A DNA stretch of 64,000 nucleotides, from positions 2,362 to 66,361 of the forward strand of contig PLZO01000022.1 in assembly GCA_003152165.1 (NCBI GenBank), given 5' to 3'. A model generated the notes under the pieces. The model had not been told where the DNA came from. It did not search any database and saw nothing but the letters and a program-made list of their open reading frames with translations. Of this stretch, positions 29,113 to 63,388 are shown piece by piece (position 1 is the first letter of the stretch; the number at the start of each line of letters is the position of its first letter). A program made the translations under genes and the position numbers. Source of the stretch: Chloroflexota bacterium. Lineage in GTDB: Bacteria; Chloroflexota; Limnocylindria; Limnocylindrales; CSP1-4.

Positions 29113-29619
29113 TTAGCCGGAGGGTCCGGCCTGGGGATCGTCCGGATCTCCGCCCCCGACCCCGCCGCCGGCATCGCGCTTCTCGGTGTCCGCCAGCTTG
29201 CGCCGGTTCGTCTCGCGAGTTCTCAGGATCGAGCCGGCTGCCTTCATCGAGTCAACCGTGGGCGGGGGGTTGGCCGCCCGGCGCTGGCGGCCCAGCTCCC
29301 GAGCGGCCTGCCGGGCCGCGGCCCGGGCGGCCGTGCGTGCCCCGATCGTCGCCTCGTAGCCCTGCTCGCTCGGCTGGTAGTAGCGCCGTTCGGCCAGCGC
29401 TTCGGGCAGGTACAGCTGCGCGATGTCGGAGTCCTCGAAGTCGGGCGGATAGCGATAGCCAACGCCATAGCCATAGTGCTTCATGGCCGGATGCCCCGCG
29501 CTGCGCAGGTGGAGCGGGACCGGCAGCGCCCCACTCGCGTCAAGGTCCGCGACGGCCGCCCAGTAGGCGGTCCCGGATCGGTTCGACTTCGGGGCGGTGG
29601 CCAGGTAGGTCGTAGCTTG
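29113..29619 (-). pseudogene. Displaced 3' remnant of rarA (C-terminal ~170 codons, no 5' part)
   Basis: Translation (…TAPKSNRSGTAYWAAVADL…LPVPLHLRSAGHPAMKHYGYGVGYRYPPDFE…QGYEATI…) is about 60% identical to the C-terminus of the intact RarA at 41287-42795. Codon usage matches the host (GC3-rich). Homology stops at about 29620; the upstream 26 codons are unrelated. Confidence 0.7.
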
Positions 29620-29698
29620 CGCCCATGGACATCGTTCGTCGCGTCGATTATCGTGATCCTGGCGACCCCATTCGACCCCGAACTCGAAGGACCTCACG

Positions 29699-31018
29699 AT
29701 GACAACGATACGGCCCGCTGCCTATGTCAGGAAGAGCCATCGCGACGCCGTCTCGGCGACGGCTCAACTAGCGTCCATCCAGGAGCTTGCCATCCGGCAG
29801 GGTGTCACCGCACCGCTGGCGGTCTATGCCGATGTTGGGGTGTCCGGGCGTGCCGGGAAGAGGGGTGTCAAGTCAGAGTGGGGTCGCCTGCGCGATGACA
29901 TCACCGCGGGCTCCATCACCGTCGTCTACGTGACCGCCCTCGACCGTGCCGGTCGCTCACTCCTCGAATGGCTTCAGTTCGTCGAGCTCTGCGTCGCCAA
30001 GGGGGTCGAGGTCCGTGACCAGTCGGGCGTCGATCGAACGTCGGGTGACGCCGAGGACATCGCCACCATCGAGATGATGATGGCGCAACGTGAGGGGCGC
30101 AAAGCCGTCGAACGATCCGCCCGTGGTCGAGCCACGCAGGCCCGCAGGGGGGATGACGTCTACCAGGGCCACCCACCGTACGGGTGGATGCGCGTCAAGG
30201 ACGCCAACGGGCGCATCACGCAGATCGCCAACCCCGCCGAGCCGCTCCAACCCCTCCTAGAGGCCATCAGAGCCACCAAGGGGAACGTCTTGGCCGCGGC
30301 GCGGTTCCTATCCACCTCGGGAGTTCCGACGCGCTCCGGGCGGCCTTGGGACGCTCGGGTGTTGACCCGCGCTCTCGACCGCCAGGGAGTGATCCGGGCA
30401 CGACGCGAGGGCGCACGCCGACGTCGCGGTCCGTCCGACGCGCCGTTGTCGCGGATCGTCGTGTGCCACTGCGGCGCAACGATGACGCCCGAGCGCGATC
30501 GTCGCAACGGCCAATGGCTCGGCCTCGTGTGCTCGGTCGGGCGCAAGGCGGGTCAAGCGTCGCACGGGCGGTACATCGCACGATCGCGGCACGTCATGGA
30601 GTTGCTCAAAGCGTCAATGCGGGTCACCACCCACCACATCGAGCGATCGTCGCCGACCGACACCGCCGCGCAGCGGACCGACCTCGAGGCGAAGCGTCGC
30701 CGACTCGGCATGGCGTTGGCCGATGACGCGATCGGCGAGGACGACTACCGCGTCCGAATGGAGGCCGTCAAACGCGACCTCGCCGAGCTCGATGAGAGCG
30801 TCGCGGGCGAGGGTGAGTGGATCGGATGGACTCACGGTCCGTTGGTCGACTGGACGGTCGATGACGTCGCGCTCGGCGATCGCCTCCGGTCGCTAGTACG
30901 ATCCGTCACGCTCGACACGGACATGATGCCCGTCGCGGCCGACTACCGCGTCCCGTGGTTGCCCGCTGGCGTGTCGCGCTCGCGCCGCTCTACCGAAGAG
31001 AAGCCTTCCCACGCGTGA
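29699..31018 (+). CDS. Large serine recombinase (serine integrase)
   Basis: N-terminal resolvase-type catalytic domain (AAYVRKSHRD…TAQ…, catalytic Ser context), recombinase domain, zinc ribbon (CHCG…C), C-terminal coiled coil. 439 aa. Confidence 0.85.
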   Translation: MTTIRPAAYVRKSHRDAVSATAQLASIQELAIRQGVTAPLAVYADVGVSGRAGKRGVKSEWGRLRDDITAGSITVVYVTALDRAGRSLLEWLQFVELCVAKGVEVRDQSGVDRTSGDAEDIATIEMMMAQREGRKAVERSARGRATQARRGDDVYQGHPPYGWMRVKDANGRITQIANPAEPLQPLLEAIRATKGNVLAAARFLSTSGVPTRSGRPWDARVLTRALDRQGVIRARREGARRRRGPSDAPLSRIVVCHCGATMTPERDRRNGQWLGLVCSVGRKAGQASHGRYIARSRHVMELLKASMRVTTHHIERSSPTDTAAQRTDLEAKRRRLGMALADDAIGEDDYRVRMEAVKRDLAELDESVAGEGEWIGWTHGPLVDWTVDDVALGDRLRSLVRSVTLDTDMMPVAADYRVPWLPAGVSRSRRSTEEKPSHA

Positions 31019-31486
31019 GTGGGTCGGCCGCTCGCCACGCTTCGCCTCGCAATGGGCTCTGCTCTTCACGCGCGCGTTGCTCTGCGGTAGCGATGCAGTG
31101 GGCGTGTGTCGCAACCTGACGCTGCTCGAACTCGATCGCGCGTGCGGCGAACTCCGCATCCGTCTCCGCGGCGCGCGCGGGGATGACCTTGTCGTCTTCC
31201 CGCCGCTCAGCGCGTGCGGGCCACGGTTCAACGGGACCCCACATCGAGCACCACGAGCAATCGTGCCAGTCGGGAGGAACGTCCATGTCGGGAGTCTCGC
31301 ACCTGCCTCGCGCACGCCTCTACGACCTGAAAGTACCGCCGACGAGCCTTCGACCGAGCACGACGTAGAGAAGCGTCGAAACGCTCCCGGAGAGGGCATA
31401 GCGAGGCTCCACGCACGAATCTCGGGTCGAGAATCTGGCACTTTCACGAGAACGGGTGGAAACACGTCTTTGGGCCGTTCTACGAT

Positions 31487-31527
31487 CTAGCTGCGCCTAG
31501 CGCCTCGCTTAGAGTGGCTCTGGTAGA
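31487..31527. repeat. Cluster of phased TAG-containing repeats (CTAGC, CTAGC, TTAGAG, GTAGAG; 10-13 bp spacing) containing the 12-mer TAGAGTGGCTCT
   Basis: The 12-mer recurs at 37450-37461 inside a second cluster (cgcTAGAGtggctctTAGCGcgctccTAGCGtcc, 37447-37479). CTAG is otherwise rare in this high-GC DNA. Both clusters lie inside the island. Confidence 0.45.
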
Positions 31528-31678
31528 GGCGTCCTCCGCGTCACGCTCCCGTGCCAGGAGCGCCCAACATGGCGGGCAAAGGCCGAACCCACTCGCGGCG
31601 CTTCCGGCCATCCAGCGCGCATCGTGATGCGTCCATGGGCGGAGGCACCGCTCGCACGGCGGCGGGCCCGCGTCGCGC

Positions 31679-32128
31679 TCAGCCGACTCCAGCACCGATC
31701 AGACCGCGCGATCGAACGACTTCCACCACGTCCATGCCGTCGTCGGGTGCTGCGGGCGACGCATCGACCGAGCGGAGCACGCCGTCCTCGTCGATCGGAG
31801 GTGACTCCTTCGCCACCCGCGTCGCCTCGCTGTTCCCGCCGGTGAACGTCGACTCGACCGTGACCGGGCGACGCTCTTTGGGTTCGGCGATCGCGTGGAG
31901 CCGGTGCGACGCGAACGCGGTCGACATGGCCTCGTCGGTCCTGCCGCCGATGACCGTTCCGCATGAGCACACAGCGCGACGTTTCGCGCCGTAGCGGACC
32001 TCCGCCACGACATGGCCGACGGCCATCCGCGAGCGGTTGCCTCCGAGCCGCTGGCCTGAATTCCATGAGGAGTGGCCCCTCACCGCGGCACCATGGCCGC
32101 GACGCACGCCGCGAGGATGAAGAGCCAT
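31679..32128 (-). CDS. Hypothetical protein (last gene of the minus-strand coupled operon); start uncertain (ATG 32128 or ATG 32026)
   Basis: ORF follows the upstream gene stop (32151) after 22 nt. No recognisable domain; contains CSCG. Confidence 0.3.
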   Translation of the reverse strand: MALHPRGVRRGHGAAVRGHSSWNSGQRLGGNRSRMAVGHVVAEVRYGAKRRAVCSCGTVIGGRTDEAMSTAFASHRLHAIAEPKERRPVTVESTFTGGNSEATRVAKESPPIDEDGVLRSVDASPAAPDDGMDVVEVVRSRGLIGAGVG

Positions 32129-32150
32129 ACCACGAAGAAGACGATCGTTC

Positions 32151-32330
32151 TCACCGCGTGGTGTCCGCGACGTTCGCCCTGATGCCGTCCTCGACGGCGG
32201 TCTGGACACGGGCGAGGCGGAGTGCTTCGCGACGCAGCGTGACGGCGTCGATCGCCTCCCGCCGCTGTCGCTCACGCTCCCGCTGCGTCGCGGACTTCGC
32301 GTGCGGAACGGCGGTGGCCATGTGGCCCAT
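32151..32330 (-). CDS. Small hypothetical protein (59 aa, Arg/Glu-rich helical)
   Basis: ATG at 32330 overlaps the upstream stop as ATGA (translational coupling). Sequence MGHMATAVPHAKSATQRERERQRREAIDAV…. Confidence 0.4.
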   Translation of the reverse strand: MGHMATAVPHAKSATQRERERQRREAIDAVTLRREALRLARVQTAVEDGIRANVADTTR

Positions 32331-33175
32331 CACCGGACCGTCCCGTCGGGCCGCGTCGCGGTGATCGTGGACCCGGTGGAGCCACGCTCTGACGACTTGG
32401 CCATCCCGGCGGGTTCGACATACTCCTCGCCGACCGCCCACGCCCCCATGGCCGCGGACATCTTCGCCGCGATCGACGTCTCGGCGCGTACCTTGAGCGA
32501 CGCGGTCACGACCTCGGGTCGGCCCGCAGCGAGGGCGGCATCTTCGATCAACTTGAGGACCTGCGTCTGCGACGCGAGGATCGCGCGCTCGTGTTCGATG
32601 GCCGCGGCTTGAGCGCGCGCCTCAGCCTGGACGAACACGCGACGCGCGGGATCAGCCAGATCGTAGTCCATATCGATGCTCTTGACGATGCTTCCCGCCG
32701 TTGCGTCGCCGAGTTGGCTTGCCGCCTGCGCGAGTACCCGTGCCTGCGAGAGCGCGCCGAGGCCGTAGAGGTTGATCGCCCGCTCGGAGAGCGACGCAAC
32801 GCGGTCCTTGTCCACCGTGCCGTTGGCCGTCTTCGCGTCGCGCACGAGCTGCGCGACTTCCGCCCGATCGGACGCGCGACGCGCCTCCTCGGCGGGTGAC
32901 TGGACGCGATCGCGTTCGGTCGCGAGGCCCTTCCGTGCCTCACGGACGATGTAGCCCGTCAAGCGCGACGTGCGCTCACGCGCCACGGCGGCGGCCGTGT
33001 CGAACGTGCCACGCGCGGTGGCCAAGTCGGCATCGAGCGTCTTCGGGTCGATGAGCACGCCCTGTGTCGCGCGCTCGGTGATGCGGATCGCTTGTGAGTT
33101 GATCTTGAGCACGTCCGCGTTGAACGCATCGGCGACGTCTTTCAACGTGTAGGTGGGTACTTCAGTCGGTGGCAT
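32330..33175 (-). CDS. Hypothetical alpha-helical protein (281 aa)
   Basis: ATG at 33175 preceded by gaaggagg at -5. Non-repetitive helical sequence; possible phage structural, scaffold-like or regulatory protein; no motif recognised. Confidence 0.55.
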   Translation of the reverse strand: MPPTEVPTYTLKDVADAFNADVLKINSQAIRITERATQGVLIDPKTLDADLATARGTFDTAAAVARERTSRLTGYIVREARKGLATERDRVQSPAEEARRASDRAEVAQLVRDAKTANGTVDKDRVASLSERAINLYGLGALSQARVLAQAASQLGDATAGSIVKSIDMDYDLADPARRVFVQAEARAQAAAIEHERAILASQTQVLKLIEDAALAAGRPEVVTASLKVRAETSIAAKMSAAMGAWAVGEEYVEPAGMAKSSERGSTGSTITATRPDGTVR

Positions 33176-33329
33176 GTGGGCCTCCTTCGAGGTTGGTGAT
33201 GATCCGATCGAGTACGTCCCGATCGCGCGTGGTGTCGAGCGCCCAAGCCGCCGCCAGGAGACGGATGAGGATCCGCTCCAGCGGTGTGAAGCTCGGTTCG
33301 GTTACTGATGTGCGACGCTTGCTCTTCAT
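33162..33329 (-). CDS. Small hypothetical protein (55 aa)
   Basis: ATG at 33329 overlaps the upstream stop as ATGA, with an aggagg RBS 5 nt upstream. Its stop overlaps the start region of the next gene. Confidence 0.45.
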   Translation of the reverse strand: MKSKRRTSVTEPSFTPLERILIRLLAAAWALDTTRDRDVLDRIITNLEGGPHATD

Positions 33330-33997
33330 GTGTCCTCCTGTGTCCTTAGGTGCTCCTTCACGTCAGGCGACGCGTTGGCCATGCCCGTAGCGTGGTGTTC
33401 CGTGTGCCGCCGGACCTCCGCCCGCGACGCCTCGATCGCCGCGGTCGGCTCCACGTAGTCGACCCACGGCATGAGCGGTAGGCCCAACGTCGCCCGGAGT
33501 GCGTTGGCCGCGTCGAAGCGGGCCCGTGGGTACGGGAGCAGCGCCGTGAAGAGCTGCGCTTCGAGGCCGCTCTCGACGAAGGCCTCCACGGCGATCGCGC
33601 CGGTGTCGCGCGTGTCCGCCGGCGGGGTGCCGATCCGTGCGAGGTCAGATGCCGCTCGTCTCCGCTCGGCGAGGATGCCCAAGCGCACGCCGGGACCGAC
33701 CGAGTCGAGGGGGATGTCCAGTCCGGCGATCACGCTCCGGAGGAGTTCCTCGGCGGTCAGCGGTAGTTCCTTCGCCTGCGTGGCTTCTGTTCGCCTGGGT
33801 GGCTCTTGCGGGCTACCGGTGACCACCGGAACGACATGCCCATTGCGCTTGTGCCGTGCGATCGCGTCCCGGTGGCAGCCGATCATCCGTGCGATCACGA
33901 CAGCGGGTCGACCGGCCAGGATCATGGAGTCGGCCATGGCCCGCTGCGGATTGCTGCAGACGGTACAGCGGCTCCCGATCACGGGTCCCTTGCTCAT
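33326..33997 (-). CDS. Zinc-ribbon + HTH DNA-binding protein (first gene of operon)
   Basis: I place the start at the ATG at 33997 (RBS ggaga at -7). N-terminus CTVCSNPQRAMADSMILAGRPAVVIARMIGCHRDAIARHKRNGH is a CxxC zinc ribbon plus an HTH, resembling phage small terminase/regulator N-termini. Confidence 0.55.
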   Translation of the reverse strand: MSKGPVIGSRCTVCSNPQRAMADSMILAGRPAVVIARMIGCHRDAIARHKRNGHVVPVVTGSPQEPPRRTEATQAKELPLTAEELLRSVIAGLDIPLDSVGPGVRLGILAERRRAASDLARIGTPPADTRDTGAIAVEAFVESGLEAQLFTALLPYPRARFDAANALRATLGLPLMPWVDYVEPTAAIEASRAEVRRHTEHHATGMANASPDVKEHLRTQEDT

Positions 33998-34088
33998 GGT
34001 CGTGTCTCCGGTCGCGCAGACACGACAGCGGTTGCGGTCCGTGCGCGGTGAACTCCCGGCGTGGTAACTTGCGACCCGGAGGTCGCGA

Positions 34089-34122
34089 GTTCTTCGCGAC
34101 GTGACGTGGACACGCGAAGAAC
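34089..34122. promoter_or_regulatory. Inverted repeat gttcttcgcg-N14-cgcgaagaac upstream of the 33997 operon; candidate operator
   Basis: 10-bp perfect inverted repeat flanking acgtgacgtggaca, about 90-125 bp upstream of the operon start. Embedded TCGCGA hexamers. Confidence 0.35.
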
Positions 34123-34139
34123 GCATCTGCGTACAAGCG

Positions 34140-34840
34140 GGTGAGAAGCCGCCTTCACAAACTGCTCCCCGGAAACGACGCCCGCGGGATACACCCCGGG
34201 GGTTGATACACGCCCCCTAGACGGTTGAGAGCACGTGTAAGAGGCACCGGCGGGGGCCGAGCGGCCGTTGCGTACGTCCGTCACGATGTCGCCCCTCTCA
34301 GTGGCAGTGCAGAGCGTGAATATGTATTTATCACAGCGGGGCATGCGACTCGTGGATATGTATTCACGAACGTACCCAACCGACGGCTATGTGTGTGCAC
34401 ACGTACGTCCACGAGGGATCGACTTCCGACAACGGCACCCGCCACCAACCAACGCTTGTAATGCAACCGCGAGGAATACTCGGAGGAACTGCCCCCGCAT
34501 ATCCACACACCCGCGCATGCAAGCGGCGCACCAAAGCGCCTCGAATACCTCGGTCGGCCGTCCACAACACCCGCGGCCCTCTGCACAACGGCCCCGTCCG
34601 TGCACCGAGCCGACACAAGAGCGGCACTCACACGACTCACCGATGCTTCGTGGGTGTATCCGCGGCCCCGAACCACATCGGCCGTCTGAGGGTGACCGGC
34701 ACGAGAGCGAGCAATATACTCAGTGCCGTTCTTTACATGCCCCGCTAATCGACACACGCCGTTGTACTCAAGCGGCCGCTTCCCGTATACGATAGCAACG
34801 TCATTCCGGAGCACTCCGGAGAACGAACCCGAAGGAGATG
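34140..34840. other. About 700-bp non-coding, comparatively AT-rich region with multiple short direct repeats (iteron-like)
   Basis: No credible ORF in any frame. Repeats: GATACAC(G)CCCC x2 (34188-34216); ATATGTATT(TAT)CAC x2 (34319-34366); CGTACGTCC x2 (34270, 34401); ACACCCGCG x2 (34507, 34567). Runs of CA/ACAC. Confidence 0.5.
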
Positions 34841-34841
34841 C

Positions 34842-35054
34842 ATGTTCCCATACACCATCGACTCGAGCCCCACCAAAGCAACCCCGAAGCGAACCGCTCC
34901 GAAGCGGATCTGGGTCCACTCCACACACGCCGTCATGGCCGCCGCGCGACGTTGGGATATGGAGCACATCCCGGCGATCCGAGCCGCCGAGGAAGCTCAC
35001 CCGAGTGTCGGCTTCGAGCGCGACGAATACGGGCCTCTCATCCTCAACTGGTAG
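34842..35054 (+). CDS. Small hypothetical protein (70 aa)
   Basis: ATG preceded by gaaggaga at -5. Sequence MFPYTIDSSPTKATPKRTAPKRIWVH…; no known motif. Confidence 0.5.
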   Translation: MFPYTIDSSPTKATPKRTAPKRIWVHSTHAVMAAARRWDMEHIPAIRAAEEAHPSVGFERDEYGPLILNW

Positions 35055-35164
35055 CCGACCACGATCGTCGTTGGCAGTGGTCAGTGCTAATGGCAGTGGT
35101 GACCACTTCCCGCCGTTGAGACCGGCATTCCATCCGCGCCTCCACGAACACTGACCACTACCAC

Positions 35165-35210
35165 CCCCCCTATTTATATAGGGGATAGGGGTGGTAGTGG
35201 TAGTGGTGAG
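35165..35210. terminator. Strong hairpin (13-bp perfect stem ccactaccacccc / ggggtggtagtgg, AT-rich loop ccctatttatataggggata) between convergent genes; putative bidirectional terminator
   Basis: Perfect 13-bp inverted repeat with a 20-nt loop, located between the 3' ends of 34842..35054(+) and 35231..35902(-). No U-tract, as is common in high-GC genomes. Confidence 0.45.
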
Positions 35211-35230
35211 GCGTGGTGCCCACAAGTGAC

Positions 35231-35902
35231 TCATACGTCCTCGGGGTCGGCGTCGGGATCGACACGGAAGTACAATCGCTTCTTCGCTCCGCCGACACTT
35301 GTCGCGACGTAGACGACTCGTAGTTTCCCGTCTTCAACGAGTTCCGCGACGCGCTTCCGGACCGTCTCGCGAGACCGCCCACTGACCTCAACGAGCGACG
35401 CCATGTCGAGCCCCTCACCGTCGGTCGGGATCGCGTCGAGGAAGCTCTCCCACTCGTCTTCCGAAGCGACGTTCAACGCCTTCGTGGCAGCGGCCTCGGC
35501 GCGGAAGACGTTGTAGAGGCACGTGTAGACGGCTTCGGTGTACTTGAACCCGCTTTGAGTGAACCGCTCACCGTCGCGTACAACGCACTTGGAGTCATCC
35601 CCGTACGTGTCCGACGGTAAGCCGACACGAGCGAGCTCTTTGGCCGCCCACACGTCGCGAGCGGTACGCGCTTCCTGGTAGGACGGGAACGTGCCGTCCT
35701 GTTTCGACCAACGGTTCTTCCCGTGGATGAGCGGGTCGAATACGTCGCGGAAGTCGTACGCGCTCGTGGCCTTCGGGCGGTCGGGATCATCGAGCGCCGT
35801 GCGAATATCCACGGGAAGCTCTTCGCGACGCAACGGGCGTGGTGGTTGAGGCCGTTGGGCGTAGTGCGTGTCGGTGCGTGCGTTCCAGTCGATGGGGCTC
35901 AC
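35231..35902 (-). CDS. Hypothetical protein with a C-terminal winged-helix-like segment (223 aa)
   Basis: GTG start overlaps the stop of the upstream XRE gene (GTGA). C-terminus …LVEVSGRSRETVRKRVAELVEDGKLRVVYV… is wHTH-like; the N-terminal 150 aa are unassigned. Confidence 0.5.
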   Translation of the reverse strand: MSPIDWNARTDTHYAQRPQPPRPLRREELPVDIRTALDDPDRPKATSAYDFRDVFDPLIHGKNRWSKQDGTFPSYQEARTARDVWAAKELARVGLPSDTYGDDSKCVVRDGERFTQSGFKYTEAVYTCLYNVFRAEAAATKALNVASEDEWESFLDAIPTDGEGLDMASLVEVSGRSRETVRKRVAELVEDGKLRVVYVATSVGGAKKRLYFRVDPDADPEDV

Positions 35903-36330
35903 GACGTCACGCTCTCGGCGACGCGGTCGGCGAGGAACGCGTCTACCTCCGCCACCGAATGGAGGCGATTGTCGTCGTAGGGCGGGTCAAGGAAGATGTC
36001 CCAAGACGCTCCTTCGACAGTACTCTGGCCACCGCCATCAACGCCGATGCCAGCGACGCGGAGTCGGTCTTCTTGGGAGTGTCGCTCCACGAGCGACGCA
36101 TCGACACCGGTCACGCTCTCGGCGATCGCCATCAGCCGCGACGCGCGGCCAGGTTCATTCCGTGGTGACCCGTGTCGTTCGACGATGGCCACGAGTGATT
36201 GTGAGAGTCCACCCAATTGCGCGAGCTCACTTTGGTTCAGTCCCGCCCGTAAGCGGGCCCGACGTAGTGCGACACCTTCGGTTGGGCGTGGTGCGCGTTC
36301 GGTGACGTAGCGTGGTCCTATTCGTGTCAT
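35899..36330 (-). CDS. XRE-family HTH protein with an uncharacterised C-terminal domain (repressor-like)
   Basis: ATG at 36330 with aaggaagg RBS. HTH LRRARLRAGLNQSELAQLGGLSQSLVAIVERHG; C-terminal region contains DIFLDPPYDDN. Divergent from the 36818 gene across a 470-bp region. Confidence 0.6.
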   Translation of the reverse strand: MTRIGPRYVTERAPRPTEGVALRRARLRAGLNQSELAQLGGLSQSLVAIVERHGSPRNEPGRASRLMAIAESVTGVDASLVERHSQEDRLRVAGIGVDGGGQSTVEGASWDIFLDPPYDDNRLHSVAEVDAFLADRVAESVTS

Positions 36331-36493
36331 TCGGTACCTTCCTTTCACTCATTCGTGCGAGTTGGTGGCGTGTAGAGAAGTCGATCGTTCAGTAGTATTC
36401 CCGAATGACAAGGCGGGTTCACGGTGACCCGACGATCACCCATTGGTAGCGGGGTGTTCTCGGGAGTCCAACCCGGTCTTCCGCCATTCTTCC

Positions 36494-36717
36494 GAACGTT
36501 CACGTTCGACTGCTTGGGTGATACGACTATTGTAACGCATGCTCGCCGGCTATGCGCACCTATAACCCACCGGGTGACGTCGCCAGACCACTCAGTGACG
36601 TTGCCCATATGAAGTCGATCGGATACGCGGTGATGTCATCAGCGCGCCTCTCCGTCGTTTCCTAGACGGTGTCGCCTGAATGCGCCATTGAAGTCGGCGA
36701 AGTTGCGTTTCACGTTC
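36494..36717. promoter_or_regulatory. Divergent promoter/operator region with repeated TTCACGTTC motifs
   Basis: gaACGTTCACGTTCgac at 36494-36510 (overlapping palindrome GAACGTTC) and a second TTCACGTTC at 36709-36717; a TTCACGG at about 36416. Lies between the XRE gene and the 36818 gene. Confidence 0.4.
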
Positions 36718-36817
36718 AAGTTGGCTATGGACAATCTGCGCGATCAGCGCGAAGGTTGACGTTGTCGTCGATCGACGATCACCAACGAACGACCGCGAGG
36801 TCGAAAGGGACTTTTCA

Positions 36818-37312
36818 ATGACACGGATCGCAACCGCCAAGGACGCCGCCGCCGCCATCAAGGTCATTCGGGCCCCGAAGGCCGCGAAGGTCGCGCCGAT
36901 CGTCGACACCGCCGCGAAGATCGTCGGCCAGTGCGTTGCATCGCCAACGCGAGCCCCACACATCAAGGTTCGTTGCACGAACCCGATCGGCACCATCAAT
37001 CACGTCCTTTGCGACGAACACGCCGAACTTCTCAAGGCCAACGCGAAGGCCGCCAAGGCGTCCGCGCCAAAGAGCGCGAAGGCGAAGCCCGTCAAGCCGA
37101 AGTCGGCGGGAACGTCAAAGGCTTCCACGAAGGCACCGAAGATCGTCACCGCTCCCGAACTCCCGACGCACGCCGCGAAGGTCGCCCGCACGTCGATCAT
37201 GCAACCCGCGCTCGCTCGCATCCCGCGACCGAGCACGTGGACGCCAACCGTCGAGCAACCCGCCACGTACGTCAACCTCGTGACGCCAGGCGGACCCGAA
37301 CCGACCGAATAG
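36818..37312 (+). CDS. Basic Ala/Lys-rich protein with a Cys/His cluster and a histone-H1/HU-tail-like repeat region
   Basis: RBS gaaaggga. Contains C-x11-C-x10-C-x2-H (CVASPTRAPHIKVRCTNPIGTINHVLCDEH), then KANAKAAKASAPKSAKAKPVKPKSAGTSKASTKAPK. Confidence 0.5.
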   Translation: MTRIATAKDAAAAIKVIRAPKAAKVAPIVDTAAKIVGQCVASPTRAPHIKVRCTNPIGTINHVLCDEHAELLKANAKAAKASAPKSAKAKPVKPKSAGTSKASTKAPKIVTAPELPTHAAKVARTSIMQPALARIPRPSTWTPTVEQPATYVNLVTPGGPEPTE

Positions 37313-37733
37313 TCGTCGATCGACGATCGACCCCCACGAGGCCCGACCAACATCGGGCCTCGTTCCATGTCCGGCGCCGCCACCCGTCCACTCAGAGGCG
37401 ATGCCCAAGCGAAGTCGCGAAACTACCCGACTTCACCGGCTCCGTTCGCTAGAGTGGCTCTTAGCGCGCTCCTAGCGTCCAGGCGCGCGACTCCGAGCAA
37501 ACGCCGCCACCACGGGACTGTACTCACGAAGGAACTCCTCTCCGCAGGCCCGATCTCGGCGTCGTCCGACCAGCGCACTCTGGGGCGTCGCGGTCCCTAT
37601 GTACACGGCGCGCCCGCGCGCGTATCGTGGCCTTGCGCGTTTGCGCAAGGACGCAACCATGGAGGACCACAGTGGATCGCCGCCACCTGGCCCGTGACAG
37701 GCGGGCCGTCACGACGCCCGGCATACTCAGACC

Positions 37734-38768
37734 ATGACCGACGAGCGACCACCTGTTGAGCCAGTCCTACAGACCGAACTCGGGGCGCTCTACGCGGGAG
37801 ACTGCGTCCCGCTCATGCGGGCGCTGCCTGCGGGATCGGTCGACCTTTTCTTCGCCGATCCACCCTTCAACCTCGGCAAGGACTACGGGGTCGCCGCGCC
37901 GGACAACCACACCGAAGACCGCTATCTGAAGTGGTGCTTCGAGTGGCTGTCCGAAGGAGTCCGGCTGCTCAAACCGGGCGGGTCGATGTTCGTCTACAAC
38001 CTCCCGAAGTGGTCGATCCCCATTGGCGAGTTCCTACGGACTCGGTTGACCTTCCGGCACTGGATCACGGTCGAGATCAAGTTCGGGCTTCCGATCACGG
38101 GTCGCCTCTACCCGAGCCACTACGGCTTGCTCTACTTCGTGAAGGGGAAGCGGCCGAACCGCTTCGACCCGCCGCGCCTCGCGATGCCGACCTGCCGGCA
38201 CTGCGGCGGCGAGATCCCGGACTACGGCGGCTACAAGGACAAGATGAACCCGAAGGGGCTCAACCTCTCCGACGTGTGGAGCGACATCGCGCCGGTCCGC
38301 CACTCGCGGTTCAAGAATCGGGAAGCGAACGAACTGTCGCTCAAGCTGATGGATCGAGTCCTCGACATCGGCTCGGCGCCTGGCGACATCGTCCTGGACC
38401 CCTTCGGCGGAGCCGGGACCACCTACGTCGCGGCCGAACTCAAGCACCGCCGCTGGATCGGGATGGAGTTGAGCACCGCTGACGCTATCGTGGATCGGTT
38501 CGCCGACCTCAGCCAGGATCGGGCGAACCTTCGCCGATACCGGTCGGGGATCAACACCCTGTTCACGCCCGAGGCGTTGGCCCTGCGCGCCCGGTCGGGC
38601 ATGGGCAGGAACAACCACCGGTACAACATCGAAGGGGCCGCGCCCGACGCTCGACTCAACGGAGAGGTCCACCAACTCTCGCTCGACACCACCGAGACAG
38701 TCGAGTCGATCGAGGGTGGGCTAACGAAGAGCCCGGCCGTCGGTTCCCTTCCGGATGAGCGGCACTAA
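37734..38768 (+). CDS. DNA methyltransferase, beta-class (N4-cytosine or N6-adenine), Type II R-M
   Basis: Motif IV DLFFADPPFN precedes motif I DPFGGAGTT (circularly permuted beta order). Contains a Cys cluster CRHCGGE. Confidence 0.8.
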   Translation: MTDERPPVEPVLQTELGALYAGDCVPLMRALPAGSVDLFFADPPFNLGKDYGVAAPDNHTEDRYLKWCFEWLSEGVRLLKPGGSMFVYNLPKWSIPIGEFLRTRLTFRHWITVEIKFGLPITGRLYPSHYGLLYFVKGKRPNRFDPPRLAMPTCRHCGGEIPDYGGYKDKMNPKGLNLSDVWSDIAPVRHSRFKNREANELSLKLMDRVLDIGSAPGDIVLDPFGGAGTTYVAAELKHRRWIGMELSTADAIVDRFADLSQDRANLRRYRSGINTLFTPEALALRARSGMGRNNHRYNIEGAAPDARLNGEVHQLSLDTTETVESIEGGLTKSPAVGSLPDERH

Positions 38769-39446
38769 CGGATCGGTCGCGTCGTAGCTGACGACAATCA
38801 CGGCCAAGCGGCCAGGAACGTCGACTCGACCGTAGACCTCGCGGTACAGCGATAGCTCGCGCCAGTTGCCGGTCCGGTCGGTGAGGTAGCGGTAGAGATC
38901 GCCATCGGGGAGGCACAAGACGGCCTGCTGCGCGAGACCACGCATCAAGGCGACGGTCAGTCGGTTGAGTGACCGATGCGAGCTGCTGATATTGCCGGTC
39001 TCCCACTCGACCAACGTGGACCAGGCGCTCGCCAGCGCCTTGCCCGCGTCGAAGCCGCCTCGACGGCCAAAGAGCGGGATCTCCATCGTCCAGCCACGCG
39101 CCTTCAGGTCGAGGGCGAATGCTTGCTTGATCGGCACGACACCGTTGCCTTGTCGCTTCGGGTTGATCGTGAACTTGCCCGATCCGGGCGGCCAGTGGAT
39201 CGTCGGGATGACCAACCTGATCTGGGCGAGGTCGGCGTCGGCAACCGCGATCTCACCGGGGTCAGTGAGTCGATCGAACAGGACGACCTCTTCCGCGATC
39301 AGCACGGACCGAGAGTACAACGCGTCACCCCCAATGGGCCAAACGCGGCGCTCGTCCACGAGACCGTCATGGCGACTGACCCAACAAGTGGTCTGGCTCG
39401 CCTCGCATAGCGGAGAGGATGCCAATTCGGACACCCCCACGTGCAA
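38721..39446 (-). CDS. Putative Type II restriction endonuclease (convergent partner of the MTase)
   Basis: 241 aa, convergent with the MTase and overlapping its 3' end by about 48 nt. Possible PD…(D/E)xK elements (TDPGE … ALDLKA). No family-level match recognisable by eye. Confidence 0.4.
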   Translation of the reverse strand: MHVGVSELASSPLCEASQTTCWVSRHDGLVDERRVWPIGGDALYSRSVLIAEEVVLFDRLTDPGEIAVADADLAQIRLVIPTIHWPPGSGKFTINPKRQGNGVVPIKQAFALDLKARGWTMEIPLFGRRGGFDAGKALASAWSTLVEWETGNISSSHRSLNRLTVALMRGLAQQAVLCLPDGDLYRYLTDRTGNWRELSLYREVYGRVDVPGRLAVIVVSYDATDPLVPLIRKGTDGRALR

Positions 39447-39781
39447 GTGGGCGCCTAATGCCGTGGGAATAAGCGTGCGGAGCTATTTGTCGTAATAGCC
39501 CGATGTCTATTGAGCAACGCACCGGTCGCGTAATCGAGCCGAATCTTGCCACGATCGCGCACAAACATAGGCTTCCATATGTAACGCGGCGCCACGGATG
39601 CCGCATATCCACCTGGCTGGTATGTCGAATGGTGACGGACTCGTTGGCTGGGGGAGATCCGGATACGCGAGCCAGGACGATTGCCGTAACGATGTCATGG
39701 AGACGGACTTGACAGGCCGGGCATTCCGTGCAAACTCAACATCGTCAACTTCGGCAGTCAACGATGGAGGACGGATTAGCG

Positions 39782-40375
39782 ATGAACCCCGACGACGTGA
39801 CCCATATTCTCGCAGGCGCGGTCAAGGCAGTGACCGACGCCAAGGTGCCGCCGGACCTGGCACCGGTTGCCTTCGAAAAGGCGATCGACATGCTCGCCGG
39901 CCCGCGGCCGGTGGCAGCTTCGACAACGGCGACATTGGGGGTGCCAACCTCGGTCGCCGCGCCGACCACGCCCACCGGGTCAGCGATCGACCGCTTGGCG
40001 ACCCGCCTTCATCTTTCGCACGAGGTTGTCGAAGCCGTCTTTACGGAGAACGGAGATGAGCTCGCGATCAGCGTGCCGCCCGATCGGTTGGCGAAGGCCA
40101 AGAGTGCAGGCGCCCGTGAGATCGCCCTGCTCGTCGCGGCCGCGCGCCAGAGCAGCTCGGATGATCCGACAACGACCGACCAGATCAGGCGGGCTGTCGA
40201 GGATTACAACCGATTTGACGGGCCGAATTTCGCCTCGTCTCTTTCGCCGATGAAGGGAACATTCCTCGTCGCCGGTCCCTCGCGCTCGCGAACCTTCAAG
40301 TTGACGAAGCCTGGATGGACGGCTGCCGCCTCGCTGGTCGGCCGGTTGGGCGCCCCTGACAAGTCAGCATCGTGA
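39782..40375 (+). CDS. Hypothetical protein (198 aa), first gene of a 2-gene cassette
   Basis: ATG with ggagga RBS. Helical N-terminus, Ala/Thr/Pro-rich linker, C-terminal domain. Its stop overlaps the next start (ATGA). Confidence 0.5.
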   Translation: MNPDDVTHILAGAVKAVTDAKVPPDLAPVAFEKAIDMLAGPRPVAASTTATLGVPTSVAAPTTPTGSAIDRLATRLHLSHEVVEAVFTENGDELAISVPPDRLAKAKSAGAREIALLVAAARQSSSDDPTTTDQIRRAVEDYNRFDGPNFASSLSPMKGTFLVAGPSRSRTFKLTKPGWTAAASLVGRLGAPDKSAS

Positions 40376-41193
40376 CCACGGGGCGAGCCCGAACGGCCTC
40401 TCACTCGCCGGTCCCAGCTGCGAGCACCGGGGGTCCGGCCGCGGTGCTCGGCGGCCTGCCCCTCGGCATCAGGCAGGAGCTCATCGACGAGTTGAACAAG
40501 ATCGAGCGCCATTTCCGCGAGGGCCGCTGGGAACCTGCGGAACTCGACGGCGGGCGACTGTGCGAGATCGTCTACTCGATCGTCCGCGGCGAACTGGACG
40601 GCAAGATCCCGTCCAAGGCGTCCAAGCCGACCGACCTTGTTGGGGCGATCCGGGCCCTCGAGGGCGTGCCAGCATCGACCGGACCGCGATCGTTCCGGAT
40701 CACGATCCCGCGCGCCCTTCTCGGGATCGTGGACGTCCGGAACGATCGTGACGTTGGCCATATCGGCGGCGAGGTCTCCTCTAACCACATGGATGCCTCC
40801 TATGTCCTTGCCGGTGCCAAGTGGCTGGTCGCCGAGCTTGTCCGCTACTACCACCAGGTCGACACCGCGACCGCCACCACGTTTGTTGAAGCGTTGATCG
40901 AACGGGACACCCCAGCTGTTTGGCAGGTCGCGGGCACGAAGCGACTACTCCTGCATGGCGTCTCGATGCCTGATCGGACCCTCGTGGCCCTCGATTCGAC
41001 CGCCGGACCGGTCCATACCACGGACCTCCGGGAGTGGACGGGCTACTCCAACGCGACGCTGTTCCGGCAGAGCATCCTGGTCGAGCTGCATCGCGCCGAT
41101 CTCATTCACTACGACCGCAAGACTGGCCTTGTGTATATCTCGCCGCTCGGTGCCAAACGTGTCGCCGACCACCTACACCAGTGGGTCGCCTAG
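40372..41193 (+). CDS. Hypothetical protein with a possible HEPN-like R-x6-H motif and a C-terminal winged-helix-like region (273 aa)
   Basis: …ITIPRALLGIVDVRNDRDVGHIGGEVSSNHMDASYVLAGAKWLVAELVRYYH… then …ELHRADLIHYDRKTGLVYISPLGAKRV. Translationally coupled to the upstream gene. Located in the island beside the R-M system. Confidence 0.5.
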   Translation: MTTGRARTASHSPVPAASTGGPAAVLGGLPLGIRQELIDELNKIERHFREGRWEPAELDGGRLCEIVYSIVRGELDGKIPSKASKPTDLVGAIRALEGVPASTGPRSFRITIPRALLGIVDVRNDRDVGHIGGEVSSNHMDASYVLAGAKWLVAELVRYYHQVDTATATTFVEALIERDTPAVWQVAGTKRLLLHGVSMPDRTLVALDSTAGPVHTTDLREWTGYSNATLFRQSILVELHRADLIHYDRKTGLVYISPLGAKRVADHLHQWVA

Positions 41194-41286
41194 ATCTTGG
41201 TCAATACGATCAATTAGGCGTCGATCCCAGGTGACAACGCTGTGGTACTCGGCGCGTTCCTTGCCGCCGGCTCCACGATCCCTCCC

Positions 41287-42795
41287 TCAAGTTCCAGCGT
41301 CGCGCTTCTGCGTCTCCGCGAGCTTCTTGCGGCTCTCGTTGTGGGCGTTCAGCCCGTCGCTCATCGACCCCATCGGGTCGAGGCCCGGCCGATCCTGCTT
41401 CCGACGCTGGCGACCAGCTTCCCGAACAGCTTGCCGAGCACCATCTAATACAGCCATCCGCGCGCGGACCGTCGCTTCGTAGCCCTGGTCGCCCGGCACG
41501 TAGTACCGCTGCTCCACGAGGGCATCGGGAAGGTACTGCTGCGAGATGTCGTCGCCCTCGAACTCGTGGGGGTTGCGGTAGCCGACACCGTCGCCGTATT
41601 GCTTCATGGCCGGATGACCCGCCGTCCGGAGATGCGCCGGGACCGGCAGCGATCCGTACTTCAACACGTCAGCCATCGCCGCGGCATAGGCGCGACCTAC
41701 CGCGTCCGACTTGGGCGACGACGAAATATGGACGGTCGCCTGGGCGAGGGCGTACTGGGCCTCGGGCAGGCCCACGTGGTCAAGGGCCTGGGCCGCGGCC
41801 ACCGCCACCTGGAGCGCCCGGGGATCGGCGTTGCCGACGTCCTCGGAGGCGCTGATGATCAGCCGCCGGACGATGAACCGGGGATCCTCGCCCGCCGCGA
41901 TCATCGTGGCCAGCCAGTACAGCGCGCCATCGGGATCGTTGCCCCGCAGGCTCTTGATGAAAGCGGAGGCCGTGTCGTAATGGCCGTCGCCGGCCCGGTC
42001 GTAGGCAAGGACCCGTTGCTGGGCGGCGGCCTCGACTTCGGCCAGTCGGGGCGCGACCCGACCCTCCAAATCGCGCACGCCGGCCGATTCGGCCAGGGCG
42101 GTGGCGCCTTCAAGCACATTGAGCGCCTGGCGGGCGTCCCCGCCGGCCAGTCCGACGAGGTGGGCGAAAGCGTCGTCCGGCAGGCTCACCCCACCACTAG
42201 GGCCGAGCGCGCCGGCCAGTCCCCGGTCGGGATCATCGATCGCACGGCGGACCACGGTTCGTACGTCACCGTCGGACAGCGGCTCCAGGCGCCAGACCCG
42301 CAGACGCGACAGGAGCGCGCTGTTCAACTCGAAATAGGGGTTCTCGGTCGTGGCCCCGATCAGGATGATCGTGCCGTCCTCGACGTGGGGCAGTAAGCCG
42401 TCCTGCTGGGATTTGTTGAAGCGGTGGATCTCGTCGATGAACAGAACGCTGCGCGCTCCGTTGAGGCTCAGCCGCTCACGCGCCGTCGCCACCGTCGAAC
42501 GGATCTCGGCGACGCCGCTCATCACCGCCGACAGGCTCATGAAGTCAGCCCCGATCGCGTCGGCGAGGAGCCGGGCCAGGCTGGTCTTGCCCGTCCCCGG
42601 CGGGCCCCACAGCAGGATCGACCCGAGGTAGCCGCGTTCGACCGAGCGGCGCAGAGGACCCTCCTCCCCGACGAGTTGAGCCTGGCCCACGTACTCGGCC
42701 AGCGTTCGCGGGCGCATCCGGGCGGCCAGGGGCTGGACGCCCGGCGGGGGCTGAAAGAGGGCGGCCTGGTCTGGAGCGGGACGGCGCGTCGGCAC
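41287..42795 (-). CDS. rarA: Replication-associated recombination protein A (AAA+ ATPase RarA/MgsA); chimeric, with the 3' ~450 nt supplied by the integrated element
   Basis: Walker A GPPGTGKTS, Walker B LFIDEIHRF, MgsA C-terminal domain (…LRTAGHPAMKQYGDGVGYRNPHEF…). Codon usage shifts to AT-ending codons downstream of …LAQAT (about 41735). Confidence 0.85.
   Translation of the reverse strand: MPTRRPAPDQAALFQPPPGVQPLAARMRPRTLAEYVGQAQLVGEEGPLRRSVERGYLGSILLWGPPGTGKTSLARLLADAIGADFMSLSAVMSGVAEIRSTVATARERLSLNGARSVLFIDEIHRFNKSQQDGLLPHVEDGTIILIGATTENPYFELNSALLSRLRVWRLEPLSDGDVRTVVRRAIDDPDRGLAGALGPSGGVSLPDDAFAHLVGLAGGDARQALNVLEGATALAESAGVRDLEGRVAPRLAEVEAAAQQRVLAYDRAGDGHYDTASAFIKSLRGNDPDGALYWLATMIAAGEDPRFIVRRLIISASEDVGNADPRALQVAVAAAQALDHVGLPEAQYALAQATVHISSSPKSDAVGRAYAAAMADVLKYGSLPVPAHLRTAGHPAMKQYGDGVGYRNPHEFEGDDISQQYLPDALVEQRYYVPGDQGYEATVRARMAVLDGARQAVREAGRQRRKQDRPGLDPMGSMSDGLNAHNESRKKLAETQKRDAGT

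Positions 42796-61048: not shown

Positions 61049-63388
<2,340 letters not shown>

Follow-up and report, generated by a model that had tools for sequence, protein, structure and literature searches.

A probable BamHI/OkrAI-family restriction-modification pair carried by a serine-recombinase element in rarA of a Limnocylindria-like Chloroflexota

The features of the locus were compiled within the window, meaning the whole 64-kb stretch of DNA that was analysed (Table 1). The host is a high-G+C, Limnocylindria-like member of the Chloroflexota from an uncultured lineage. At the centre of the locus lie two convergent genes, one for a methyltransferase and one for a restriction endonuclease, with the C-terminal tail of the methylase encoded antisense to the conserved C-terminal arm of the endonuclease. 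It was noted that both genes fall within a segment that separates two copies of the rarA 3' end, and that a further two-gene operon is found on the same segment. The initial annotation had proposed an island-borne Type II restriction-modification pair made up of a beta-class methyltransferase and a convergent cognate endonuclease, a proposal that the family matches, the related loci and the insertion described below support.

Table 1. Positions of the restriction-modification genes, their motifs and the features of the carrying element within the window.
Feature	Position	Strand	Remarks
Displaced original rarA 3' end	29116..29658	-	Pfam MgsA_C positions 63-164
Integrated mobile element carrying the pair	29660..41780		~12.1 kb; each end to ~+/-40 bp
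Serine recombinase, 439 aa	29699..31018	+	Left end of element; Pfam PF00239 Resolvase, 1.4e-19
-10-like hexamer CATACT	37722..37727	+	6 nt before methylase ATG; putative leaderless promoter
Methyltransferase gene, 344 aa	37734..38768	+	ATG start; beta-class N4C/N6A amino-methyltransferase, short form
Motif IV DPPF of methyltransferase	37857..37868	+	aa 42-45
Motif I FGGAGTT of methyltransferase	38403..38423	+	aa 224-230; AdoMet-binding loop
3' overlap of methylase and endonuclease genes	38721..38768		48 bp
Restriction endonuclease gene, 194 aa	38721..39305	-	GTG start 39305; stop codon 38721-38723
Base-contacting codons, endonuclease	38733..38993	-	N 38991-38993; R 38973-38975; D-R 38874-38879; C-terminal arm D-G-R 38733-38741
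Four catalytic acidic codons, endonuclease	39000..39083	-	E 39081-39083; D 39048-39050; E 39006-39008; E 39000-39002
-10-like hexamer TACTCT	39312..39317	-	6 nt before endonuclease GTG; putative leaderless promoter
Two-gene operon of unknown function	39728..41193	+	Same element; divergent from endonuclease gene
Full-length rarA, 502 aa	41287..42795	-	3' third (41287 to ~41780) supplied by element

The methylase was found to carry motif IV N-terminal to motif I, as had been read in the initial annotation, and this beta order together with a match to Pfam PF01555 (N6_N4_Mtase; 2e-35) places it in the beta class. A match to the PADLOC profile MTase_II (PDLC03238; 7.5e-113) covers profile positions 115-425 of 428. 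The protein has no N-terminal HTH domain and is short, with ~100 N-terminal residues fewer than the ~415-aa methylases encoded on plasmids, while its long-form homologues bear HTH_3 or HTH_31. Over 285 aa it shares 52% identity with methylases that adjoin annotated BamHI endonucleases (plasmids NZ_CP020032.1 and NC_020305.1), and one of its homologues is named 'BamHI-like'.

The convergent ORF, reported earlier as 241 aa, does exist at that length when counted from its first TTG (38721..39446, minus strand), and it overlaps the methylase gene at the 3' ends, but its coding part was found to be shorter. Homologues measure 189-199 aa and their N-termini align to V48 of the 241-aa ORF, which corresponds to the GTG start; a TTG at 39320 is a second possible start. 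The stretch 39306-39446 is probably non-coding 5' flank. Whether the ORF might be antisense noise was also considered, and 3498 homologues were recovered, with a third-position G+C that is high in both reading frames (0.86 and 0.79), far beyond chance. An identical 194-aa protein (P0001) has been called on 4 metagenome contigs. The methylase is likewise no orphan, as a BamHI-family endonuclease gene is adjacent to it.

No recognisable family had been assigned to this ORF, and here the initial annotation has to be revised, since by its sequence matches the protein is clearly a BamHI/OkrAI-family endonuclease. It matches Pfam PF02923 (BamHI) at 5.9e-35, with 120.8 bits against a cutoff of 22.8, and this is the sole family matched; further matches were obtained to PADLOC REase_II (7.7e-39), to the OkrAI structure 3ODH (3odh_A; 9.2e-40, 43% identity) and to BamHI (1bam_A; 3.2e-18, 40% identity). 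The PD...DxK elements suggested earlier gave way to a variant of the PD-(D/E)XK site in which Glu replaces Lys, the BamHI-type E...D...ExE arrangement. In the HMMER alignments, the four catalytic residues (E122, D133, E147 and E149 in the numbering of the 241-aa ORF) correspond to E71/D86/E99/E101 of OkrAI and to E77/D94/E111/E113 of BamHI. The base-contacting residues N104, R110, D142, R143, D189, G190 and R191 of OkrAI are identical at 7/7 positions, including the short C-terminal arm D-G-R. All 11 of the functional residues named for OkrAI, whose roles were taken from the structure paper (PMC3025578), are therefore present in the window endonuclease, and the same 11/11 are invariant across 8 homologues of 46-77% identity.

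The comparison with the two characterized enzymes brought out further likenesses and differences. OkrAI, from Oceanospirillum kriegii, has the same length of 194 aa and aligns end to end with the window endonuclease, with a 4-residue deletion before the catalytic Asp; however, its host belongs to the Proteobacteria and not to the Chloroflexota, and 57% of the residues differ. BamHI, from Bacillus amyloliquefaciens H (1BAM/1BHM), shares PF02923, the active site and the major-groove contacts, and its partner is a PF01555 amino-methyltransferase as in the window, whereas at 213 aa it is longer than the window endonuclease and carries extra N- and C-terminal helices (PMC3025578).

Because the catalytic and base-contacting residues of OkrAI are all conserved, the predicted recognition site is most likely GGATCC. 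A functional BamHI-fold pair that reads a different but related site (a BstYI-like RGATCY, a BglII-like AGATCT or a novel one) appears improbable to us. The protein shares no more than 40-43% identity with OkrAI and BamHI, many homologues give weak precomputed matches to the BglII family PF09195, and the notable star activity of OkrAI (PMC3025578) could be counted in the same direction. However, the window protein itself matches PF02923 only, its Asn, Arg, Asp-Arg and Asp-Gly-Arg contacts are identical to those of OkrAI and BamHI and invariant across the clade, and its partner methylase is orthologous to the methylases of annotated BamHI systems. The occurrence of GGATCC was examined as a further line of evidence and set aside. 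We counted 42 sites in the 64-kb window against 42-50 expected, a lack of depletion that fits either recent acquisition or a fully protecting methylase and gives no positive support for the specificity. Within the element, 1 site was observed against 4.3-5.2 expected, a value that is not significant (P = 0.034 uncorrected; 6th most depleted of 64 palindromes).

For the chemistry of the methylase, its 52% identity to methylases that accompany annotated BamHI endonucleases makes an N4-cytosine enzyme the most likely reading. M.BamHI, which belongs to PF01555 as well, makes N4mC (PMC2890505, PMC8885841). That the window methylase might instead modify adenine at N6 is suggested by the DPPF form of motif IV, which is common in m6A enzymes, by the name 'adenine-specific' that JGI gives to homologues, and by the best NCBIfam match and several PDB matches, which are adenine methylases. 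We nevertheless regard an adenine enzyme as unlikely, given the orthology to BamHI-type methylases, the product of M.BamHI, and NCBIfam adenine-methylase scores that lie far below their cutoffs. Since BamHI still cuts GGATCC whose adenine carries Dam methylation, DNA modified by an m6A enzyme would be expected to stay open to a nuclease with BamHI contacts.

We then compared the pair with related loci. Adjacent restriction and modification genes were present in L001-L010, L095, L096 and L097, with unrelated flanking genes, and the convergent arrangement recurs in at least 7 other loci, again with unrelated flanks. Because the two genes are adjacent in every related locus examined despite the differing flanks, the view that methylase and endonuclease form a cognate pair is supported. 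Convergent relatives that lack a controller (C) gene were seen in metagenomes and MAGs, namely L005-L010 of the same clade, L095 from Roseiflexaceae, and L097. These share the gene order and orientation of the window as well as its short methylase (294-341 aa), and several of them sit on serine-recombinase or phage-like elements. The 3' overlap is 48 bp in L005, L007 and L008, falls to 4 bp in L009 and L095, and is absent from L097.

This arrangement differs from that of the plasmid BamHI-type loci, in which a ~415-aa methylase is transcribed divergently from a C(HTH)-R operon; the window instead has a 344-aa methylase and convergent genes that overlap by 48 bp, and neither the C gene nor the long methylase of the classical C-controlled layout is present. 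In the search for a C gene, no HTH ORF was found adjoining either gene of the pair, and two small minus-strand ORFs that precede the endonuclease gene (39507..39761 and 39367..39612) gave no HTH or other Pfam match, while the plasmid controllers used as positive controls scored HTH_3 at 6e-17 and 2.5e-13. A C gene is also absent from the related loci examined. One HTH protein (35899..36348) was considered as a candidate C protein and rejected, as it lies 1.4 kb off, beyond another gene, and has sub-threshold HTH matches only.

Expression signals around the pair were then examined. A sigma-70 consensus scan found no promoter, a terminator scan found none between the two genes, inverted repeats near both genes were short and unremarkable, and no Shine-Dalgarno sequence was seen directly upstream of the endonuclease gene. 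Each start codon is preceded at 6 nt by a -10-like hexamer, and a TAnnCT motif 6-7 nt ahead of the endonuclease start codon also occurs in L005, L007 and L009. These short motifs suggest leaderless promoters. The GTG start and the missing Shine-Dalgarno sequence, together with the lack of a controller protein and of GGATCC avoidance in host DNA, could also be read to mean that the endonuclease gene is silent or inactive, the locus then being a solitary methyltransferase beside a decaying nuclease gene. We consider this very unlikely. The gene has an unbroken frame of the full length seen in the family, none of the catalytic residues has been lost, the identical protein was recovered from four independent metagenome contigs, and the GTG and leaderless-like start layout is conserved in relatives, which argues for a normal mode of expression.

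Taken together, the locus is best explained as a Type IIP restriction-modification system that is complete and belongs to the BamHI/OkrAI family, a reading to which we assign a probability of roughly 85%. In this system, the endonuclease would act as a homodimer that binds GGATCC through Asn, Arg and Asp-Arg contacts in the major groove and through the Asp-Gly-Arg C-terminal arm, as in OkrAI, and would cut the DNA at an active site of the two-metal E-D-E-E type. The methylase would protect the GGATCC sites of the host by N4-methylating a cytosine, in the manner of M.BamHI. With no C protein and no HTH domain in the methylase, we infer that the balance of expression may come from the convergent and apparently leaderless genes, from an ATG start for the methylase against a GTG start for the endonuclease, and from antisense control, in which transcripts would collide across the 48-bp overlap where no terminator intervenes. 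The whole cassette would be cargo of the element integrated in rarA.

The insertion itself was confirmed by comparison with a related genome (L012), in which uvrD-like, rarA, aminotransferase and PGDH genes are contiguous; the same block is interrupted in the window, and this break in synteny shows that ~12 kb (~29.66-41.78 kb) has split rarA and supplied a replacement 3' end, with the serine recombinase at one end of the insertion. The displaced 3' end has 54% amino acid identity to RarA residues 339-501, with clear homology from ~29622, and lies directly upstream of the aminotransferase gene as it does in relatives. The identity of both 3' copies to relatives does not by itself show which of them is native, and it is the adjoining aminotransferase gene that marks the displaced copy as the native one. 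G+C falls to 0.60-0.66 at 34-41 kb. The junctions were narrowed to ~29622-29698 and ~41745-41781, and a DNA alignment of the two junction regions gave no clear shared att core. Searches for tRNA genes across the window and for Rfam families in the element came back empty, which indicates that the element is not tRNA-targeted.

With a resolvase domain at its end, an insertion relative to related genomes and a duplicated target segment, the segment has the features of a serine-recombinase integrative element. Serine-recombinase elements and prophages that insert in a host gene and restore its frame likewise carry the resolvase at one end and duplicate the 3' end of the target, one copy being displaced and the other joined in frame to the 5' part. 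In the window recombinase the catalytic resolvase domain is the only domain detected, and within the 12-kb element no genes for phage structure, conjugation or replication could be recognised.

The pair is an ordinary two-gene bacterial defence system of a well-known kind, and it neither opens nor settles a long-standing question. The endonuclease is a probable isoschizomer of BamHI from a high-G+C lineage of uncultured Chloroflexota and, having the same length as OkrAI, the minimal enzyme, enlarges by one the set of natural sequences in which the reading of GGATCC can be compared. The locus is also a further case of a restriction-modification cassette that travels on a small serine-recombinase element, one that enters a housekeeping gene and repairs it.

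Of slightly more interest as leads are the apparent absence of a dedicated regulator and a LexA-box-like operator at the methylase promoter of relatives. Within the same clade, the four relatives that are non-identical (L005/L006, L007, L008 and L009/L010) carry a TACAAT -10 box and a CGAAC-N4-GTTCG palindrome before the methylase gene, as well as a methylase leader with a Shine-Dalgarno sequence. In contrast, the methylase start in the window consists of CATACT, 6 nt and the ATG, with no such palindrome. We take CGAAC-N4-GTTCG to be a LexA box of the kind found in Gram-positive bacteria and Chloroflexota; a literature search on the Chloroflexi LexA box returned nothing usable, and the window has a single perfect GAAC-N4-GTTC, at 61223, which falls inside a gene and says nothing about the LexA box of the host. 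A wider reading is put forward tentatively and is rather doubtful: that the convergent BamHI-type pair without C gene or HTH domain is a distinct regulatory variant, that the methylase is under LexA-type control in the relatives, and that the neighbouring two-gene operon is a new defence or abortive-infection module. If it were so, transcriptional collision or antisense RNA across the overlap would give the two leaderless genes control over each other, methylase expression in the relatives would follow either the SOS response or the induction of the element that carries the pair, and the window copy would be a derivative that has lost the LexA-type control.

The unannotated two-gene module is an additional side lead. 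Its genes have a 4-bp start/stop overlap and encode proteins of 215 aa and then 273 aa (or 252 aa from 40435). PADLOC gave nothing consistent for the module. For the 273-aa protein, a single-sequence AlphaFold model was of no use (pLDDT 39) and an alignment-based model was good (pLDDT 89). The protein has a helical domain with an RNxxxxxH motif (RNDRDVGH) and a C-terminal winged helix, and a Foldseek search against PDB and BFVD matched the winged helix only. A HEPN/Abi_C identity was considered from the RNxxxxxH motif and from weak Abi_C matches in 5/56 members, and is tentative at best. Should the module nonetheless be a defence or abortive-infection system, it would be a new one that travels with the restriction-modification pair.

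The convergent open reading frame beside the methylase gene was found to encode a textbook endonuclease of the BamHI/OkrAI family, and the pair is carried on a small integrative element. In the initial annotation, made from the sequence alone, this frame had no recognisable family and only possible PD...DxK elements. It was noted that the frame matches Pfam PF02923 (restriction endonuclease BamHI) at 5.9e-35 (120.8 bits; cutoff 22.8) and PADLOC REase_II at 7.7e-39. Among solved structures it matches OkrAI, a minimal BamHI isoschizomer (3ODH), at 9.2e-40 and BamHI (1BAM) at 3.2e-18, with identities over aligned columns of 43% and 40%, respectively. The catalytic residues E71, D86, E99 and E101 of OkrAI correspond to E77, D94, E111 and E113 of BamHI, and OkrAI makes its base contacts in the major groove with N104, R110, D142 and R143 and from its C-terminal arm with D189, G190 and R191 (PMC3025578). 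When mapped through HMMER alignments, all 11 of these residues were identical in the window endonuclease, and none of them varied when seven homologues (46-77% identity) were aligned with it. Because the functional residues are all identical, the active site follows the BamHI type, an E...D...ExE version of the PD-(D/E)XK fold rather than PD...DxK, and the same conservation leads to GGATCC as the predicted recognition site.

We found that the endonuclease gene is shorter than the 241 aa read from the first TTG. The large protein collection contained 3498 homologues, nearly all of 189-212 aa, and four metagenome contigs carry an identical 194-aa protein whose first residue is encoded by the GTG at 39305. 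Homologue N-termini (MRIVEEVVLFD...) align with VLIAEEVVLFD of the window at this same position. The gene is therefore 194 aa long, exactly the length of OkrAI, and the first 47 codons of the longer frame are most likely 5' flank. A TTG at 39320, with GGGGGT just before it, is a candidate alternative start. The homologues, together with third-position G+C of 0.86 and 0.79 in the two frames of the pair (the excess typical of this genome's real genes), argue against antisense noise, and both frames lie exactly at the coordinates of the initial annotation.

Positions of the restriction-modification pair and associated features (window coordinates unless a locus is named)
Feature	Position	Strand	Remark
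Methylase gene	37734..38768	+	344 aa
Convergent frame	38721..39446	-	241 aa from first TTG
Endonuclease gene	38721..39305	-	194 aa
Overlap of 3' ends	38721-38768		48 bp
-10-like hexamer CATACT	37722-37727	+	6 nt before methylase ATG
-10-like hexamer TACTCT	39317-39312	-	6 nt before endonuclease GTG
CGAAC-N4-GTTCG at methylase promoter	L005 9576-9587
CGAAC-N4-GTTCG at methylase promoter	L007 9598-9609
CGAAC-N4-GTTCG at methylase promoter	L008 5454-5465
CGAAC-N4-GTTCG at methylase promoter	L009 9557-9568
CGAAC-N4-GTTCG, further copies	L009 3567-3578, 3617-3628, 3860-3871		divergent intergenic region
Element	about 29.66-41.78 kb		integrated inside rarA
Junction regions	about 29622-29698 and 41745-41781
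Partial second rarA copy	29116..29721	-	Pfam MgsA_C, only positions 63-164
Serine recombinase gene	29699..31018	+	439 aa, resolvase domain; directly beside partial rarA copy
Full-length rarA/mgsA	41287..42795	-	Pfam
Operon gene 1	39728..40375		215 aa; between endonuclease gene and rarA
Operon gene 2	40372..41193		273 aa, probably 252 aa from 40435
Segment of lowest coding signal	34130-35230		~1.1 kb; 317-aa minus-strand ORF
Ala/Lys/Pro-repeat ORF	36818-37312		164 aa; just upstream of methylase gene
Hairpin	37336-37363		perfect, 11 bp

The methylase carries DPPF at aa 42-45 and FGGAGTT at aa 224-230; motif IV thus precedes motif I, in agreement with the beta-class assignment proposed initially. 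It matches PF01555 (N6_N4_Mtase) at 2e-35 and one PADLOC model for Type II methyltransferases at 7.5e-113, the latter match covering only positions 115-425 of a 428-position profile. Its homologues form two size classes, of 290-340 aa and 410-435 aa, the longer with an N-terminal HTH_3/HTH_31 domain, and the window methylase is the short form. Adenine methylation of GGATCC by Dam is not known to block BamHI. Since the endonuclease is predicted to make the same base contacts as BamHI, protection of the host would need cytosine methylation, and from a PF01555 methylase the product would be N4-methylcytosine, by analogy with M.BamHI, which makes this base (PMC2890505; PMC8885841).

In every homologue locus looked up, a PF01555 methylase gene adjoins the endonuclease gene, while the surrounding genes vary. 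Four loci (L001-L004) carry the same element as the window. The convergent arrangement with a 48-bp overlap recurs in L005/L006, L007 and L008; the overlap is 4 bp in L009/L010 and in L095, a Roseiflexaceae MAG, and absent from the convergent pair of L097, and L096 is divergent with a 403-aa methylase. Because adjacency is conserved across such unrelated contexts, the two enzymes are a cognate pair, and this, with membership of the BamHI family, upholds the proposal of a Type II restriction-modification system with the convergent frame as its endonuclease. Genes annotated as 'restriction endonuclease BamHI' were also found on plasmids NC_020305.1 (Desulfocapsa) and NZ_CP020032.1 (Geobacillus pGeo12b), and the window methylase shares 52% identity over 285 aa with the methylase of each. 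Judged by sequence, the two window genes are orthologues of the endonuclease and methylase genes of BamHI-type systems.

Both plasmids have the classical layout, in which a methylase of ~415 aa is encoded divergently from a small HTH controller (C) gene with the endonuclease gene behind it. The window pair differs in having no controller gene and in its short-form methylase. No HTH or other Pfam match was detected in the small ORFs upstream of the window endonuclease gene; the plasmid C genes gave HTH_3 at 6e-17 and 2.5e-13 in the same test. The C-less convergent layout with a short methylase extends beyond the window, throughout the close clade and to more distant members, and it is an ordinary and already widespread variant of the family, not a new one.

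The abundance of GGATCC was then compared with expectation. The window contains 42 sites against 42-50 expected, showing no avoidance. The element contains one site against 4.3-5.2 expected (P=0.034, uncorrected; sixth among the 64 six-base palindromes), a depletion that is not significant once all 64 are considered, and an 8.6-kb stretch over most of it (33270-41881) has none against 2.9-3.8 expected. These counts are neutral on the predicted specificity, neither supporting nor contradicting it.

No promoter was found at the pair by a sigma-70 consensus scan, and no intrinsic terminator between its two genes. A -10-like hexamer stands close before each start codon, with no Shine-Dalgarno sequence before either (37722-37733, 39306-39317). 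TAnnCT was also noted 6-7 nt before the endonuclease start codons of L005, L007 and L009, and the window methylase promoter (GGCATACTCAGACC-ATG) is nearly identical to the endonuclease promoter of L009 (GGCATACTCAGCCG-ATG). The hexamer-to-start spacing and the lack of a Shine-Dalgarno sequence suggest that this Chloroflexota lineage uses leaderless mRNAs. The pair would then yield two convergent leaderless transcripts, each reading into the other, with the better start codon on the methylase side (ATG versus GTG), and methylation may be kept ahead of restriction in this way instead of by a C protein.

The methylase promoters of close relatives are built differently. In four of four non-identical close relatives, a perfect CGAAC-N4-GTTCG palindrome lies upstream of the methylase gene, directly after a TACAAT or TACGAT -10 box; a short leader follows, with a Shine-Dalgarno sequence of the AGGA type, and the gene starts at TTG or GTG. 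This palindrome is LexA-box-like (LexA/Cheo-box), of the type reportedly found in Gram-positive bacteria and Dehalococcoides. Three further copies in L009 occupy a divergent intergenic region that looks like the switch region of its element. In contrast, the window methylase has CATACT, 6 nt and ATG; the palindrome has been lost, and none was found in 37300-37733 with one mismatch allowed.

The pair had been described as island-borne, and synteny bears this out. The closest genomes for the rarA 5' part are Chloroflexota/Candidatus Limnocylindrales MAGs (79% amino-acid identity), which makes the host a Limnocylindria-like Chloroflexota and not an actinobacterium. One of these MAGs (L012) has its uvrD-like, rarA, aminotransferase and phosphoglycerate dehydrogenase genes in one uninterrupted block, whereas in the window, which has the same genes, the rarA 5' part and a partial 3' copy adjoining the aminotransferase gene stand ~12 kb apart; the intervening segment, with its serine recombinase, is thus an element integrated inside rarA. 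The partial copy shows 54% protein identity to RarA residues 339-501 (DNA, 75% over 252 bp). The element supplies its own diverged replacement 3' end, keeping rarA full length, and the partial copy is the displaced original. The G+C content, about 0.69 in the window, falls to 0.60-0.66 at 34-41 kb. The two junction regions yielded no att core; no tRNA gene was found in the window, and no Rfam family within the element, including its segment of lowest coding signal. Relatives likewise carry the cassette on elements of the serine-recombinase or phage-like kind: in L007 a resolvase gene adjoins the methylase gene, another is present on L009, and L005 has a terminase gene.

Two further genes of the element form an operon. 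The 273-aa product of the second has 808 homologues in the representative protein library but belongs to no Pfam family. Among the 36 aligned sequences, none departs from the R, N, R and H of the family motif RNxRGVGH. In a confident structural model (pLDDT 89), the protein is helical in its N-terminal domain and ends in a winged helix, the only part that fold searches recognised. It may be a HEPN-like nuclease of an abortive-infection or toxin module, to judge by weak Abi_C matches in 5 of 56 family members and by the Rx6H spacing. A small partner gene, with little sequence similarity, is conserved in position upstream of the homologue in three other loci, in one of which the two-gene module again lies directly at the rarA 3' end.

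The 317-aa ORF in the segment of lowest coding signal does not show the third-position G+C bias that marks real genes. The 164-aa ORF, rich in Ala/Lys/Pro repeats (AKAAKASAPKSAKAKPVKPK...), had no Pfam or PHROG match; its composition resembles histone H1-type or other basic DNA-binding tails, and its stop codon is followed by the perfect hairpin.
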